Sequence record: NC_005856.1
Source: Escherichia phage P1
DNA length: 64,000 nt
Reading direction: 5' to 3' (one strand)
Positions 20,883 through 27,529 of this stretch are shown in pieces; positions within the stretch are counted from its first letter, which is position 1, and every line of letters starts with the position of its first letter. Below the pieces are notes generated by a model. That model made no database searches and was not told the DNA's origin. It saw nothing but the letters and a program-made list of their open reading frames with translations. A program made the position numbers and the translations under genes.

Positions 20883-20968
20883 AAAGACCTCATAAGCGAA
20901 TTTTTACGCTCCAGGACAAACACCCATTCACAGCCAATACCGACTGACTCGATCCCTTTAGAAGACAC

Positions 20969-20990
20969 AGGATAATGCAAATCACTTGTT
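20969..20990 (-). promoter_or_regulatory. Late-promoter-like element upstream of lyz (AACAAGTGATT N5 TATCCT on the minus strand)
   Basis: 10/11 match to the -22 element; weaker -10; about 90 bp upstream of the lyz start. Confidence 0.35.
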
Positions 20991-21014
20991 AGCTACGTTT
21001 CAAAGATATACATT

Positions 21015-21031
21015 ATTGCTCTAATTAATTT
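21015..21031. promoter_or_regulatory. C1 operator (ATTGCTCTAATTAATTT) upstream of ssb
   Basis: 16/17 match to ATTGCTCTAATAAATTT; 20 bp upstream of the ssb GTG start. Confidence 0.65.
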
Positions 21032-21050
21032 ATTTTATTAGGTAAGATAA

Positions 21051-21539
21051 GTGGCACAACGCGGTGTAAACAAAGTCATCCTGATTGGTACCCTGGGGCA
21101 AGACCCGGAGATCAGGTATATACCAAATGGCGGCGCGGTCGGAAGACTCAGCATCGCAACGAATGAATCATGGCGCGACAAGCAAACGGGCCAACAGAAA
21201 GAGCAAACAGAATGGCATAAAGTCGTTTTGTTCGGAAAACTTGCTGAAATTGCGAGTGAGTATTTACGAAAAGGTTCTCAGGTCTACATCGAAGGGAAAC
21301 TTAAAACCCGTAAGTGGACAGATGACGCCGGTGTAGAACGTTACACGACGGAAATTATCGTCAGCCAGGGCGGCACCATGCAAATGATCGGCGCTCGCCG
21401 TGACGATTCACAGTCCTCAAATGGCTGGGGGCAATCAAACCAACCTCAAAACCACCAGCAATACAGTGGTGGCGGTAAACCTCAGAGCAACGCTAATAAC
21501 GAACCCCCAATGGACTTTGACGACGATATTCCGTTTTGA
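21051..21539 (+). CDS. ssb: Single-stranded DNA-binding protein (162 aa, GTG start)
   Basis: Protein [91 protein letters not shown]... with acidic C-terminal tail DFDDDIPF, closely resembling E. coli SSB. Confidence 0.95.
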
Positions 21540-21736
21540 ATGTGTAAAAAACGACTGAAAGAAAAGCGGTGGTCCAGACGCCGACAAAAGCACGAACTCG
21601 CAAACAAACGCCAAAGTTGGCAATGGCACGCGCTTTTCACGAAAAGAACACCCCGAGATATTGCTTTCGCTGGTGGGAAAACATTCCTGACCCACCTGAA
21701 GGCGCAATACATCAGTTTTTAAGCAGAGAAAAGACT

Positions 21737-22531
21737 ATGACAGCACAAAATACTAAAACCATTCAATACCGCCTACGTAATGGCCAGAGTGTCGAAGTGA
21801 CCATCAATAATGATGGAGTGCCAGGCGAAAAGGTTTCTATCTCCGATCTGGCTATCGAAAAAACCATCATGTGCCACCTTGGCTTTACTGAAGAAGTGAG
21901 CAAAAAGCATGGTGTAGCTATCTGGCGCACAATGGATACTGGAATGCGCAGATTCATTACTGCTCGTACCCCTGGTATGACCATGATGGACCTCATGCAG
22001 ATTGCGCCGCTGTTTGAGTGTGAACCTTTGGATGTATTCAGCAATCCAGCTATCTGCCAGCAGTTATATGGTGAGATGAAACTCGCGGTTACCCCCATTG
22101 TGCTGCATGAAGGATCGCTTGCTGGCGTATGGAAAGTAGAGCGAATTTCAAGCTACATGCCCTTCCACTTCCATGTCAACGGCGTAATCACTGGTGAAAA
22201 TCAACCTGTTTCCGTTACAAAGTCAGACCTCAAGCGCGCAATTCTTGAAGCAAGTTGTCGAGTTATCGGCCTGGGCAAACAGTCTTATGTTTGCTTCCCC
22301 GCAGGCCCAGAAGGCCCGGCTGAAATACTGACGATGGATGCCGATCTGCTCTGGCAAATAGAGTTTATGATTGGGAAAAGCATCATCCGAGCTGAAGAAC
22401 TCGATCAGTACATTACCTGCACGATGACGGATGAAGTCAAAAGTGTGGCTATAGCCAATGCCAGGAACCTGTGTCGTACTGCATTGGCAGAGCTGCAAGA
22501 AAACACCACGGAAGAGGTGGAAAGTGATTAA
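21737..22531 (+). CDS. isaB: Hypothetical protein flanking IS1 (264 aa from ATG 21737; longest ORF from GTG 21569)
   Basis: ORF ending 85 bp before the IS1 target duplication; the N-terminal 56 codons of the longest ORF are Arg/Lys-rich and look non-coding; name by position from memory. Confidence 0.45.
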   Translation: MTAQNTKTIQYRLRNGQSVEVTINNDGVPGEKVSISDLAIEKTIMCHLGFTEEVSKKHGVAIWRTMDTGMRRFITARTPGMTMMDLMQIAPLFECEPLDVFSNPAICQQLYGEMKLAVTPIVLHEGSLAGVWKVERISSYMPFHFHVNGVITGENQPVSVTKSDLKRAILEASCRVIGLGKQSYVCFPAGPEGPAEILTMDADLLWQIEFMIGKSIIRAEELDQYITCTMTDEVKSVAIANARNLCRTALAELQENTTEEVESD

Positions 22532-22640
22532 TTTTTACTAGAATAAAAAGGGGTGCCAGAGAGCACCCTGATAATACGAAATTAAAGGGAAATAAATTAC
22601 ATGAAGTGTAATTCTTTGCCCTCTGGGTAATGACTCAAAC

Positions 22641-23144
22641 TTATTGATAGTGTTTTATGTTCAGATAATGCCCGATGACTTTGTCATGCAGCTCCACCGA
22701 TTTTGAGAACGACAGCGACTTCCGTCCCAGCCGTGCCAGGTGCTGCCTCAGATTCAGGTTATGCCGCTCAATTCGCTGCGTATATCGCTTGCTGATTACG
22801 TGCAGCTTTCCCTTCAGGCGGGATTCATACAGCGGCCAGCCATCCGTCATCCATATCACCACGTCAAAGGGTGACAGCAGGCTCATAAGACGCCCCAGCG
22901 TCGCCATCGTGCGTTCACCGAATACGTGCGCAACAACCGTCTTCCGGAGCCTGTCATACGCGTAAAACAGCCAGCGCTGGCGCGATTTAGCCCCGACGTA
23001 TCCCCACTGTTCGTCCATTTCCGCGCAGACGATGACGTCACTGCCCGGCTGTATGCGCGAGGTTACCGACTGCGGCCTGAGTTTTTTAAATGGCGGAAAA
23101 TCGTGTTGAGGCCAACGCCCATAATGCGGGCGGTTGCCCGGCAT
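22641..23144 (-). CDS. insB: IS1 InsB (transposase C-terminal frame, expressed as InsAB' fusion by frameshifting)
   Basis: Protein [64 protein letters not shown]... is recognisably IS1 InsB. Confidence 0.9.
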
Positions 23145-23338
23145 CCAACGCCATTCATGGCCATATCAATGATTTTCTGGTGCGTACCGGGTTGAGAAGC
23201 GGTGTAAGTGAACTGCAGTTGCCATGTTTTACGGCAGTGAGAGCAGAGATAGCGCTGATGTCCGGCGGTGCTTTTGCCGTTACGCACCACCCCGTCAGTA
23301 GCTGAACAGGAGGGACAGCTGATAGAAACAGAAGCCAC
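23063..23338 (-). CDS. insA: IS1 InsA (91 aa)
   Basis: Protein [91 protein letters not shown]. Confidence 0.9.
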
Positions 23339-23526
23339 TGGAGCACCTCAAAAACACCATCATACACTAAATCAGTAAGTTGGCAGCATCACCTGCCCTC
23401 TGAATATGCAATGATGGTTAGACAAGCAAGATAGGGCGAATTAAAATTAATCAAGAGTCACTTTGTTAAGATGCGTAACATCACTTTAACACTTTATGCT
23501 TGTCATGATATTTGCTTGGAAGCCTC

Positions 23527-24132
23527 ATGAATACATATTCTGATAAAATACACAACCTTATAGATATAGCCAAATTAGCTGTGGCCATGAGGGAACATAG
23601 GTATTTTTTCGCACTTCGTCGAGGAATAGATGTTAATTTTTGTGCTGATTTAAACGGGAGTGGTACACAAGGGATATTCATAAGAAAAAAAAGTTTTAAC
23701 GCGTATGAGCCAAGTTTTATTGAAGTAATTTTTGAACCCACTCATAAAAACGATGATTCATTTCTATACGAAGAGGACCTTACTACCGATCAACGAAAAG
23801 ACTACGAACCTAGTATTAACAGAGGAAAACATCGATTCGTTGCCCAACGTGCTAAACTAAATCTCGACTGGGACAGTAATGAAATCCAACAATGGCGTTT
23901 GGATATTGAGCGACTTTCTAAACCACACAACACTCTTAATGACTGGTTAGAAAATGATTCTGAGATAATGATAATACATCTCTGCGGCGGTTATAGGTTC
24001 CGTGAACCAGTGATACTCTCTCAAAGAGACATTAAAAAATATGTAGCTTCAGGATTGACTCTGGAAGACTTAAAAAATCGGCTAAAGTGCTCAATATGTG
24101 GTGAGCGAAACGCCAAAATTAAAGTTTTTTGA
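23527..24132 (+). CDS. isaA: Hypothetical protein in an AT-rich segment flanking IS1 (201 aa from ATG 23527)
   Basis: AT-rich ORF starting about 130 bp beyond the IS1 right end; no domain recognised; name by position from memory. Confidence 0.45.
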   Translation: MNTYSDKIHNLIDIAKLAVAMREHRYFFALRRGIDVNFCADLNGSGTQGIFIRKKSFNAYEPSFIEVIFEPTHKNDDSFLYEEDLTTDQRKDYEPSINRGKHRFVAQRAKLNLDWDSNEIQQWRLDIERLSKPHNTLNDWLENDSEIMIIHLCGGYRFREPVILSQRDIKKYVASGLTLEDLKNRLKCSICGERNAKIKVF

Positions 24133-24150
24133 TCTACTTTAATAGGAAAT

Positions 24151-24178
24151 GGCTTGCTTCCATAACCTAAAGCAAGCC
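24151..24178. terminator. Hairpin between convergent isaA and the acidic ORF (weak terminator candidate)
   Basis: Stem GGCTTGCT/AGCAAGCC with 12-nt loop; no strong U-tract on either strand. Confidence 0.25.
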
Positions 24179-24243
24179 ACTACACATTTACCTTAAGCAC
24201 ACGATAACATGCCAGAACAGGTTATTTTTGCACTATCAGGTAG

Positions 24244-24552
24244 TTAATATACTATCTGGTCTACATGATCACCAAAATCATCGTCGTCGTCCTCATCGCC
24301 ACCATCTACAACAGGCCAATCAACAAACCAGCCAGCGTAAAGATGCAGCGTTCGGAGAACATCACTTGCGGGAGCATCAAGGGTGTCAACGAATCCCATA
24401 TAGCTATTGGGATTTGCTCCAGCTATGGCTTCAGCGATCATGTCCTCGGTAATGTCACCGGAGATAATGCTTAAACGCCCGGAAACTTCTTCATTATCAT
24501 CAAATTCGATAATGGCATCTCCGCCTAATGGCGCTGCGATTTTAATCTGCAT
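24244..24552 (-). CDS. Small acidic protein (102 aa) translationally coupled to the 3' end of ddrB
   Basis: ATG 24552 with AAGGAG 7 nt upstream, overlapping the ddrB stop by 11 nt; C-terminus DGGDEDDDDDFGDHVDQIVY; no helix-turn-helix evident. Confidence 0.5.
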   Translation of the reverse strand: MQIKIAAPLGGDAIIEFDDNEEVSGRLSIISGDITEDMIAEAIAGANPNSYMGFVDTLDAPASDVLRTLHLYAGWFVDWPVVDGGDEDDDDDFGDHVDQIVY

Positions 24553-27529
24553 TATTTAGCTCCTTTGCCACACCTAATAACAGTTCCAGCAATCCGTCAC
24601 CATTCATCAGTGATGCGGCAGCGGCCTCTTTGTCATGATACAACTGAAGAGCCATAGAGAATACTTCCGTTGCTGACGTTTTGGAAATAGTCGGAGATTT
24701 CTGCCGAATTTTCCCGGTGTTACTTACTGAGGCTGGCGGGTATACCTTCGCCATATAAATATTACTCAATCGAGATCTGAAGCACCATTCAGGCTTGCCA
24801 CGCCCACCGATATTGACGAAAGATGGCTTATCCCCTTCAACATTGGCCTTCAGGAATGACCGGGCTTTCTCTAACAAACCAGGGTTACTGTACTCAAGAT
24901 GATGACCCAGCTCGTGCCACAGTGCACTTGCATTTTCATCGTTCAAATTGACAGCAACAACACCATTAAGATTTGCATATGCCCTTCCCTGGTGGTGAAC
25001 TACCTTTGATAAGGTCGATATTTTCCCGCCGGTCAGGCGATAAATATCAGCAAGTTCCTTGCGCAGGTCTATCCCACCATTCTGTCCAGCGCGGACTTCT
25101 TCCACTTCTTCTGTGATAAAAGAGTCGGCCCACTCAAGAGCTTTTTCTTCAGATACGTATGAGTTTGCGATCGCACTGTTCATGGCAGATAACACTTTCT
25201 CGTGGACCGAACCCATACTTCGCTGATTCATTTGCCAGCGTGTCTGCGGGTTATATGAGAATCGCTTAAGTAGTTGGTCAAGCTGCTCAAGTTCTTCTTC
25301 ACTGACATACTTTTTAGCCTCACCAATAATGCCAGGGAGAATATTGCCGTTAGGATTAAACGCTCGCGAAAGGAAGAGTTTCAGTACCCCCATGCCCTCC
25401 GATGCTTCAATATCACCAATAACCCGGTTAACAATGGCCGCACTCTTCGGATTAGCATCCGCCAACGCTCTGGCTACGATTTGCAGGGACGATACGACCT
25501 CACGCTGCATATCAGTCCTGATCTCATCAATAAACTCTGGCGTTATACCGTGCTCTTTAAGGATATCCCGGCCTTCCGCCGTTACCCCATCGATATCACC
25601 GACATGTTTATTAACACGACTTTGCAATGCCTTAAATGCCTTCAGAATTCCACGGGCATCATCCGCTTTACTAACGGCCTTCCTGAATGCTGTCAAGAAG
25701 TCTGAGTTAACCTCATTTTGTTGATCGGCCCACTGAATGGAGGCATCTTTCATCTCGTCCAGAGTCAGATCACCCAACGCGGTATGGTCTGTGAATATGA
25801 GCGACAACCTCTGAACCATTTCTGCCAATGATGATGCCGAATGCGCCGCGCTAAGGAATGCTTTCACCCTGGTTGGGCGAATGGAAAACCAGTCAATAGC
25901 TGGTGGCATATCTCCGTTTTTTATCGCCTGCGCTATCTCGTCAAAGCCATCGCGCCCAAGGGAGGATGCGTGATTTAACAAGCCGCGAAGTAACGAATTG
26001 CTGATACCGAATAATCGGCACCATTTTTTCACGTCGGCAACAGGCATTCGAACAAAATGCGCAAGCACTTGTACAAGCTGTTCATCATGGGGATCTGTAC
26101 GGGAAAGCAGCCTGATCAGATGAATAATGTCTTTGATGCCGGATGCCCGATGTAATAGCAAACTGGTATATGGAGCAACACCGTTGTAACTACCGCCGGA
26201 AACGGACTCGAAAAGACCGCCGGATATCCCTTGCATGCCTTCGTTTTCCAGTTCCTGAGACACCTGGCGAAGGATATCCTGTAACGACACATCGCCGCCG
26301 CCAAACATATCCCCCAGCGCCTGGCCCTGGTGCTGTAACTCATCATTGATACGTTGAGCCATCAACTTAAAGGCGGTGGCCATACGCTTCGCGCTACGGT
26401 TATTCGCGACGATGAACAACGCGAGTGCTTTCACTTCCGGGGCCGTTTCGCTGAACATATCCCCCTGAGCAATAACATCGGTAATATGCTGGCCTGACTC
26501 CTTCGATTGCCTTACCAGGTCTACCGCATCTTTCAATGCCGCCAGCGCCTTTTTATCGAGGCTATCCGCTGTCTCAATGCCATCAACAATAGTTGTCACA
26601 GCCTGCTTGTGCGCTTCTCCTGATAAAGCCTGCATCTGGACAAAATCATTGGCTGCCGCATTAAGCGCCGTCAGAACATTACGCATATCCGGATCAGGTT
26701 CTTCTGCAACCATCCTTACCAGGCGCGCATCCTTATATGCCTTGGCAAAGATCGCGTTTTGTATACGGTCTACAAGTTGCCGTGTTGGTCGCCCATCTTC
26801 AGTTACAAGGCCAGCCGCCTGTGTGGCACCAACTTGCGTCATAAATCCGCGAATAAACGCGTCATTACTGCGGCTAAGCAGATCTCCGCTTTCTGACGGG
26901 TTAAAAAGCGCCATCATCGCCGGTGTTATGCTGTCGGCATCAACAAAAGCCTTTTCACTGGCTGCCATTTCCTGAAGATCAGAAATATTTGAGTCCTTGG
27001 CAAACTGAACGCGGTCAACCTTAGTTAACCGGCGGCGCACCAGTACCGGAGCCGTCATTGATTCAACCTTTTCAGGAGGTATGCCGAATTCGGTCGCATG
27101 ATCAATCAGGTACTCACGATACCGATCCGCATTGCCGTCCTGATAGGCTTTGATGATCCCCATGGTCCGTCCATTACCTGACTCAACGGCATTGTCCTCA
27201 CCAATTATCGGCGCGCCATGGCTGGATAAACCGGAATCGGTAAGCTGGGCAGGACGCAAATCCTTGGATATCTGGTTGACCTGAAGAAGACTGGATGCGC
27301 GGGTCCGGTCGCGCGGCTGAAGTTCCTGGGGATAGTCAGGGTTAATTTTCCCGTCCAGAGTATTGGATACCAAAAGAGCCGAGGCATCGACGATATCAAA
27401 CGCTGTTTTTACCTCGTCACCCTTCGCTGTCACCACATACGAAACCCGCCCGAAATCGGGCAGGTTCTTTAGCAGCTCGATCAGCGTTTCTATGCTGGTG
27501 GCCATTACCACCTGATCGCTTAAGCTCAT
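24542..27529 (-). CDS. ddrB: DdrB, large dar-operon protein (995 aa)
   Basis: Large ORF downstream of ddrA/darA in the same operon; name by P1 map position and size. Confidence 0.65.
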   Translation of the reverse strand: MSLSDQVVMATSIETLIELLKNLPDFGRVSYVVTAKGDEVKTAFDIVDASALLVSNTLDGKINPDYPQELQPRDRTRASSLLQVNQISKDLRPAQLTDSGLSSHGAPIIGEDNAVESGNGRTMGIIKAYQDGNADRYREYLIDHATEFGIPPEKVESMTAPVLVRRRLTKVDRVQFAKDSNISDLQEMAASEKAFVDADSITPAMMALFNPSESGDLLSRSNDAFIRGFMTQVGATQAAGLVTEDGRPTRQLVDRIQNAIFAKAYKDARLVRMVAEEPDPDMRNVLTALNAAANDFVQMQALSGEAHKQAVTTIVDGIETADSLDKKALAALKDAVDLVRQSKESGQHITDVIAQGDMFSETAPEVKALALFIVANNRSAKRMATAFKLMAQRINDELQHQGQALGDMFGGGDVSLQDILRQVSQELENEGMQGISGGLFESVSGGSYNGVAPYTSLLLHRASGIKDIIHLIRLLSRTDPHDEQLVQVLAHFVRMPVADVKKWCRLFGISNSLLRGLLNHASSLGRDGFDEIAQAIKNGDMPPAIDWFSIRPTRVKAFLSAAHSASSLAEMVQRLSLIFTDHTALGDLTLDEMKDASIQWADQQNEVNSDFLTAFRKAVSKADDARGILKAFKALQSRVNKHVGDIDGVTAEGRDILKEHGITPEFIDEIRTDMQREVVSSLQIVARALADANPKSAAIVNRVIGDIEASEGMGVLKLFLSRAFNPNGNILPGIIGEAKKYVSEEELEQLDQLLKRFSYNPQTRWQMNQRSMGSVHEKVLSAMNSAIANSYVSEEKALEWADSFITEEVEEVRAGQNGGIDLRKELADIYRLTGGKISTLSKVVHHQGRAYANLNGVVAVNLNDENASALWHELGHHLEYSNPGLLEKARSFLKANVEGDKPSFVNIGGRGKPEWCFRSRLSNIYMAKVYPPASVSNTGKIRQKSPTISKTSATEVFSMALQLYHDKEAAAASLMNGDGLLELLLGVAKELNNAD

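Follow-up and report, generated by a model that had tools for sequence, protein, structure and literature searches.

Resident IS1 of bacteriophage P1 and its neighbours isaA and isaB: insertion history, variable surroundings, and candidate functions

The isaA-IS1-isaB region and the structure of IS1

The 64,000-nt stretch of Escherichia phage P1 DNA that was analysed here (NC_005856.1; referred to below as the window) contains, between positions 21,737 and 24,132, the resident insertion sequence IS1 of this phage with one gene on each side of it, isaA on the left and isaB on the right. The presence in P1 of a resident IS1 between two dispensable genes is a long-known, ordinary feature. IS1 of P1 is textbook material and was annotated in the 2004 genome, and its natural presence in P1 DNA was reportedly recognised in 1978. 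Region 21000-24600 of the window is identical (100%) to the P1 record AF234173.1, with unchanged coordinates, and the gene order annotated in this record is lyz, the C1-controlled operator and promoters of ssb, ssb, isaA, IS1 (insB, insA), isaB, hxr, and ddrB.

Both genes flanking IS1, at 21737-22531 (264 amino acids, aa) and 23527-24132 (201 aa), are present in the list of open reading frames (ORFs) of the window, as had been indicated in a first-pass annotation made from the sequence alone. The names given to them there (left, isaB-like; right, isaA-like) are the reverse of those in GenBank, where the left gene is isaA and the right one is isaB. The same annotation described both products as having no recognisable domains, and our searches agree with this: neither protein matched any Pfam, NCBIfam, or PADLOC profile, and the only PHROGs assigned to them are those of unknown function. 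Homology searches did not connect either ORF with a housekeeping phage function, and remote-homology searches combined with the structure prediction of both proteins did not assign either of them to a characterised family.

IS1 of P1 (22626-23393, minus strand) comprises 768 bp and is, according to the GenBank note, 99% identical to IS1 V00609. Its ends are directly abutted by two 9-bp copies of the target sequence TGCCCTCTG, the left one at 22617-22625 and the right one at 23394-23402, so the intact duplication reported by the first-pass annotation is indeed there. The probability that a 9-mer recurs by chance at two fixed positions is about 4^-9, and target-site duplications of the IS1 family are 8 or 9 bp long (PMC12428005). 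Imperfect terminal inverted repeats are formed by the ends of the element, GGTAATGACTCAAACTTA... and GGTGATGCTGCCAACTTA..., which agree in 21 of 35 positions. The insA-proximal repeat is located at 23371-23393 (GenBank annotation and sequence) and the insB-distal one at 22626-22638 (GenBank annotation). The latter has a C-to-A substitution at IS position 12 and is described in the GenBank note as "mutant; possibly defective in transposition"; the wild-type C at this position is present in another IS1 copy.

On the minus strand of the element, insA (23063-23338) encodes a protein with a zinc ribbon and a helix-turn-helix motif (PF03811, PF12759), and the insB reading frame (22641-23144) encodes the DDE_Tnp_IS1 domain (PF03400, E = 2.3e-78); the E-values for these three families in insA and insB range from 3e-21 to 2e-78. 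The two are joined (insA to insB') by the programmed -1 frameshift motif TTTAAAAAAC of the A6C type (23081-23090, minus strand; own-strand position 304 of IS1). All three, insA, insB, and the frameshift motif, are intact. In its 768-bp length, imperfect inverted repeats, insA/insB fusion by an A6C -1 frameshift, 9-bp duplication, and AT-rich insertion site, IS1 of P1 resembles the IS1A/IS1R type of E. coli and R plasmids, and it differs from this type by the C-to-A substitution at position 12 of the insB-distal inverted repeat. A few internal polymorphisms distinguish it from the IS1 copies of related plasmids.

History of the IS1 insertion

The view of the first-pass annotation that IS1 entered an intergenic site by simple transposition could be followed up by a comparison with P1-like genomes that lack IS1, with the E. 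coli plasmids of PLSDB and RefSeq as a comparison set. In plasmid pMB3362_2 (NZ_CP103706), the order of genes is ssb, isaA, a 218-bp spacer, isaB, and hxr. The spacer contains one copy of TGCCCTCTG and no IS1, and the plasmid is otherwise collinear with both P1 junctions. Sites of this empty type, with a single TGCCCTCTG and without IS1, are present in four PLSDB plasmids (pMB3362_2, pYZLc23-1, and two more), which gives the ancestral junction as one TGCCCTCTG within the 218-bp spacer. The existence of these plasmids proves that IS1 of P1 results from a simple transposition into this AT-rich spacer, with the duplication of 9 bp. The insertion did not interrupt any ORF in P1. Plasmid p2018-05-2CC_1 contains a site filled as in P1, including the mutant inverted repeat, and the sharing of this mutation indicates that the insertion in the two is common by descent.

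The target of IS1 marks the left edge of the isaB module. Contexts with an isaA-type and with an ompC-type left flank become homologous to each other only some 10-20 bp before the target, and the homology of the isaB module between P1 and the plasmids that carry ompC and isaB starts at about 23394-23402, namely, at the right copy of TGCCCTCTG.

Variable slot between ssb and hxr

Earlier comparisons of P1-like plasmids recognised the isaA-IS1-isaB region as variable and named it RD-2 (PMC6906374) or region 2 (PMC9603915). The right boundary of the variable slot is hxr (24244-24552, minus strand; ORF list and AF234173 annotation), the last gene of the darA antirestriction operon. Between ssb and hxr, P1 contains isaA, IS1, and isaB; MH422554 contains isaA and an unrelated ORF of 364 aa; SJ46 contains a Tad2-like gene and isaA; pHNBY4G-2 and the E. 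fergusonii plasmids contain ompC and isaB; and P7 contains nmpC and an unannotated remnant of isaB. The product of the 364-aa ORF, which takes the place of isaB in MH422554, was compared with IsaB as a protein that could share its C-terminus, and no shared C-terminus was found. This ORF (locus L002, 2525-3619) is annotated as "terminase large subunit"; it has no Pfam or PADLOC match, and the annotation looks doubtful.

The isaB remnant of P7 (AF503408) is located at about 27144-27270 of the record (locus L034, 3482-3608). The equivalent of P1 positions 23415-24023 is deleted in it, so that the 19 nt following the target site run directly into the final 108 nt of isaB. The same remnant is present in about 90 PLSDB plasmids, where the match is confined to P1 positions 24024-24243 (89% identity). 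A different form of decay appears to concern pEC17CM13_2, in which a 201-bp ORF is annotated in place of the 606-bp isaB; so short an ORF in DNA that is 93.6% identical to P1 isaB suggests that the isaB frame is disrupted. In PLSDB, isaB is intact or nearly intact in about 25 plasmids and reduced to the remnant in about 90; the 3' end of isaA is present in about 345 plasmids, most of them without isaB. The unannotated isaB remnants of P7 and of the plasmids are a mildly novel point of this analysis.

In plasmid CP062860, the slot has been extended within IS1 itself. The order is here ssb, isaA, TGCCCTCTG, IS1, a 4359-bp segment with an autotransporter gene, a second IS1, TGCCCTCTG, and isaB. 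The left IS1 has the P1-type mutant outer end, the right one has a wild-type inner end, and both outer junctions of P1 are intact; the right junction is common to five further plasmids (six in all). The resident IS1 is thus the homology region through which the IS1-flanked autotransporter cargo entered. IS1-mediated capture of cargo by P1 was reportedly described by Iida, Meyer, and Arber for the classical P1Cm derivatives of Tn9 type. A 1978 paper from this work is cited in PMC12428005. As in these derivatives, a second IS1 in direct orientation and the cargo are accommodated within the position of the resident IS1, with the outer junctions and the duplication retained. Unlike in them, the cargo is a 4.4-kb autotransporter segment and not a laboratory chloramphenicol-resistance transposon, and the hosts are natural E. 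coli plasmids from pigs, humans, and chickens. The natural series of plasmids with an empty, a filled, and a cargo-loaded site for one and the same IS1 insertion is a mildly novel finding. Differences between the IS1 copies that occupy this site in different plasmids (loci L004, L019, and L046) are clustered at positions 12, 373/376, and 465-507. Such clustering suggests recombination or gene conversion among IS1 copies.

The placement of IS1 precisely where the isaB homology block begins on its left, the gene names, which mean "IS1-associated", and the plasmids in which IS1 brought cargo to this very site might all be taken as signs that isaB itself arrived with IS1, as a part of a composite transposon, by one-ended transposition, or by an adjacent rearrangement. 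We consider this origin extremely improbable. In the empty-site plasmids, isaB adjoins isaA without any IS1 and with a clean single target site, and IS1 delivery of isaB is thereby effectively refuted; isaB is also found beside ompC; and a perfect duplication of 9 bp is what a simple insertion leaves behind. The 3' remnants of isaB in P7 and in about 90 plasmids are not accompanied by IS1, which indicates that isaB is older at this locus than the IS1 insertion.

Properties of isaA and its product

The isaA gene (21737-22531, plus strand; GC 0.477) encodes a protein of 264 aa with an isoelectric point (pI) of 5.1, which is matched by PHROG 2326 over residues 4-264 and for which an AlphaFold2 model was obtained (predicted local distance difference test, pLDDT, 86; predicted template modelling score 0.82). 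In GenBank, IsaA is a protein of 320 aa that starts from GTG at 21569. This longer reading frame was rejected. In pMB3362_2, a TAG codon lies in frame within the 21569-21736 extension; SJ46 shares the leader as far as the ATG that matches 21737, with another gene beyond it; and the Prokaryotic Genome Annotation Pipeline, which assigns a 795-bp isaA in the relatives, as well as the PHROG profile, also favour 264 aa. The isaA start in GenBank is probably over-extended, with ATG 21737 being better supported by these comparisons, and this probable mis-start is another mildly novel point.

Upstream of isaA, the C1 repressor operator Ossb (Op21; 21015-21031, plus strand), which has one mismatch to the C1 operator consensus and is annotated in AF234173, precedes the ssb-isaA transcription unit; the ORF between Ossb and isaA is located at 21051-21539 (plus strand; ORF list and AF234173 annotation). 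This operator, upstream of ssb, is the only C1 site in the vicinity of isaA. Its position ahead of ssb, with isaA following, suggests that isaA is an early, repressor-controlled gene. IsaA would thus be encoded by a backbone gene of P1/D6-type phage-plasmids that is co-transcribed with ssb under C1 control, and it would be made early after infection or induction.

A terminator-like hairpin with a T-run (22551-22568, minus strand) is predicted by folding 20 nt after the isaA stop codon. The same hairpin is present in the empty-site plasmids and therefore predates IS1. If functional, this predicted terminator would now halt the read-through from IS1 into antisense isaA.

The IsaA family has few members: at E <= 0.001, 30 cluster representatives were found among 1.8 billion. 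It is confined to elements of P1, SJ46, RCS47, and D6 type and to contigs of about 90-110 kb that are more distant and encode a C1 repressor of P1/P7 type and a Cre-like integrase. Searches of viral contigs with single distant IsaA homologues found nothing. In SJ46 (locus L003, 1570-2415) and D6 (locus L033, 2594-3034), the gene directly upstream of isaA encodes a protein with a Tad2-like (PF11195) C-terminal domain (E = 2.6e-22 and 7.7e-23, respectively), and the spacing to isaA is 6 nt in both. A Tad2-like gene is also present near the IsaA homologue of a D6-like contig. The link of isaA with the genes of Thoeris anti-defence 2 (Tad2/DUF2829) in SJ46 and D6 is positional only: IsaA itself, unlike these proteins, does not contain the Tad2 domain, P1 does not contain a Tad2-like gene, and the Pfam search with IsaA and IsaB gave no PF11195 match for either protein.

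The alignment of 18 IsaA sequences revealed invariant M1, Y11, G126, L128, W132, and A168, with D223 as the only nearly invariant acidic residue. The predicted structure of IsaA gave low-scoring matches, covering a part of its 264 aa, to the PD-(D/E)xK/Hjc-like fold and to the B. cereus phage protein 1r7l; the D...(D/E)xK catalytic set of PD-(D/E)xK enzymes is absent from the 18-sequence alignment.

Properties and distribution of isaB and its product

The isaB gene (23527-24132, plus strand; ORF list, GenBank, PHROG of unknown function) encodes a protein of 201 aa with a pI of 7.7. The first-pass annotation rightly called it AT-rich: its GC content is 0.365, and that of its third codon positions 0.294, as compared with 0.469 for the window. 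A consensus scan predicts a sigma-70 promoter, PisaB, at 23419-23447 (plus strand), which comprises TAGACA and TAAAAT hexamers with a 17-nt spacer between them and matches the consensus in 10 of 12 positions. Its -35 hexamer is 25 bp from the end of IS1, which lies upstream. Both hexamers are kept in all variants with an intact isaB and are deleted in P7. The scan with the C1 operator consensus found no operator near isaB, the site being that upstream of ssb.

Between isaB and the convergent hxr, a hairpin with a 10-bp stem and a 10-nt loop is predicted at 24150-24179 (z = -2.6), 18 nt after the isaB stop codon. The hairpin that the first-pass annotation reported downstream of the right-hand gene is thus real as a predicted structure. 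It had been annotated before: in AJ000741, it falls within a "terminator" feature (24141-24214 of the window, minus strand) that is assigned to the convergent darA operon. Neither strand shows a clear U-tract at this hairpin, and the scan for terminators did not report it. Region 20900-24700 did not contain any RNA family of Rfam.

Homologues of IsaB form 56 cluster representatives with 47-95% identity, most of them with 47-60%. The conserved motifs of the family are DLNGSGxQG and a block with invariant L80-Y81-E82, D88, and K91-D92-Y93-E94-P95 (FLYEEDLTTDQRKDYEP in P1). Compared with the four Cys/His ligands, in two pairs, that a zinc ribbon would have, the family shows three invariant cysteines (C153, C188, and C191) and, in at least 90% of its sequences, a fourth one at position 158. 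P1 IsaB and its 95%-identical relative have Phe158 instead of this fourth cysteine, with His151 nearby (residues 151-158, window positions 23980-23999); apart from the disordered N-terminus, these residues have the lowest pLDDT of the model (69). The predicted structure of IsaB is confident and has no neighbour in the PDB, a structure search of BFVD with IsaB gave nothing below E = 0.08, and the profile searches of the IsaA and IsaB families against PDB sequences gave no match. The combination of an orphan protein with a confident predicted fold is likewise mildly novel.

The hosts of IsaB homologues include Enterobacterales (Serratia, Citrobacter, Enterobacter, and Mixta), Aeromonas, and many Alphaproteobacteria, and a pattern-based genome scan confirmed a match in 12 of about 186,000 species genomes. 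The isaB homologues always stand alone, as at the end of a Serratia prophage or in the accessory region of alphaproteobacterial integrative and conjugative elements (ICEs). In Aeromonas media (locus L043, 6935-8846), the homologue adjoins a Septu system (PtuA, E = 2.9e-139; PtuB, E = 2.7e-86), and in Novosphingobium (locus L045, 7043-12600) it adjoins a pair of genes encoding a PLD-helicase and a DUF1156 protein. Both neighbourhoods are defence-island settings. In 10 of 11 contexts, the GC content of the IsaB-family gene is below that of its flanks. Between unrelated isaB contexts, DNA homology mostly breaks off about 0-60 nt from the ends of the ORF, and this comparison, made to look for conserved flanks or repeats, gave no evidence that isaB is a self-mobile cassette. 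Results of these comparisons indicate that the IsaB family is small and widely transferred, with a predicted fold that does not match any solved structure.

The first-pass annotation regarded the right-hand gene as acquired cargo. Its low GC content, its own predicted promoter, and its patchy distribution in mobile elements of Alpha- and Gammaproteobacteria speak for this, with the qualification that isaB was not delivered by IS1 and is old at the locus. It resembles phage morons, or lysogenic-conversion cassettes such as nmpC, which occupies the same slot in P7, in its lower GC content, own predicted promoter, and downstream hairpin, as well as in being dispensable for lytic growth and being placed in a slot whose cargo varies from one relative to the next. 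Unlike in classical morons, the hairpin has no U-tract and was annotated earlier for the convergent operon, and the moron role of isaB is inferred.

Other observations in the window

The product of hxr (24244-24552, minus strand) is annotated as a possible Xre-like repressor and did not match any Pfam family at E <= 0.001. Its pI is 4.05, it has 24 aspartate or glutamate residues versus 3 lysine or arginine residues in 102 aa, and its gene is located at the end of an antirestriction operon. Such acidity is odd for a DNA-binding repressor and is more like that of a DNA mimic. Further near-matches to the C1 operator consensus were found in the window at 48140-48156 and 49810-49826 (one mismatch each) and at 1962 and 17166 (three mismatches each). 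The number of operator matches is far above the 0.36 expected by chance, and these further matches are presumably known P1 operators.

Discussion

Taken as a whole, the interpretation presented here, in which the region represents the resident IS1 of bacteriophage P1 with its insertion history and with the gene properties proposed above, is very likely to be correct. The roles of the flanking genes are far more tentative. A screen based on CRISPR interference found isaA, insA, insB, and isaB to be non-essential for P1 lytic growth (PMC10695390). We propose that IsaB is the product of a stand-alone, horizontally acquired cargo gene of moron type, which is probably expressed from its own predicted promoter and independently of C1. 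That it acts in conflicts between mobile elements and their hosts, either in defence or exclusion or in counter-defence, is a possibility that we put forward with reserve, and much the same holds for an accessory role of IsaA in DNA transactions or in counter-defence. Each specific role assigned to either protein is, if taken singly, unlikely.

One such role is that of a single-gene defence or superinfection-exclusion factor expressed in the lysogen, in which case isaB would be a moron of the classical kind, useful to the bacterium that carries the P1 prophage. The predicted sigma-70 promoter together with no C1 operator, the low GC content, and the dispensability for lytic growth are consistent with this, as is the presence in the same slot elsewhere of genes of lysogenic-conversion type (the nmpC/ompC porin genes and the autotransporter gene) and the location of homologues in defence islands beside Septu and the PLD-helicase system. 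However, IsaB does not match any PADLOC profile, its gene is frequently deleted, and the defence-island neighbourhood fits counter-defence equally well, so that we regard this role as rather improbable on its own. Counter-defence has no better prospects. It would make IsaB a factor of establishment similar to the antirestriction proteins of plasmids and ICEs, and IsaA likewise an early counter-defence protein. In favour of it, isaB adjoins the Dar antirestriction operon, and its homologues are located in ICE accessory regions beside replication, partition, and transfer modules; isaA is C1-controlled, directly follows a Tad2-like gene with an equal spacing of 6 nt in SJ46 and D6, and has a homologue near a Tad2-like gene in the D6-like contig. 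These arguments are those of guilt by association only, though, and the nearly neutral pI of IsaB (7.7) means that it is not an acidic DNA mimic, while the lack of a C1 operator at isaB would be unusual for a function timed to infection. Still less probable is the assignment of IsaA as a nuclease-fold protein that takes part with Ssb in replication or recombination, and of IsaB as a small zinc-dependent DNA-binding regulator. The partial similarity of IsaA to the PD-(D/E)xK/Hjc-like fold and the conserved cysteines of IsaB could be accommodated by it.

Several points weigh against the interpretation favoured here. The transposition competence of P1 IS1 is possibly impaired by the C-to-A substitution in its inverted repeat. 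The decay or deletion of isaB in most P1-like plasmids means that any benefit of this gene is conditional. No family of PADLOC profiles matched IsaA or IsaB at E <= 1, and no invariant set of acidic and lysine catalytic residues is visible in the IsaA alignment. PisaB and the hairpin or terminator downstream of isaB are consensus or folding predictions, the latter without a U-tract, and the functions of IsaA and IsaB are inferred from gene neighbourhood, regulatory signals, and predicted folds.

The proposals for the two proteins can be joined in one picture, which we offer as speculative: IsaB would found a family of single-gene conflict proteins that is novel in structure and probably binds zinc, and IsaA, whose gene comes directly after a Tad2-like gene in two divergent phages, would be an early counter-defence protein. 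IsaB genes may, in that case, be exchanged by phage-plasmids, ICEs, and prophages across Alpha- and Gammaproteobacteria. IsaA and IsaB are cheap and well-defined candidates for defence and counter-defence screens in the best-studied transducing phage. As to IS1, the plasmids with the autotransporter segment demonstrate that a resident insertion sequence turns a slot of a phage-plasmid into an entry point for cargo, and this bears on how virulence and resistance genes spread by way of P1-like elements.

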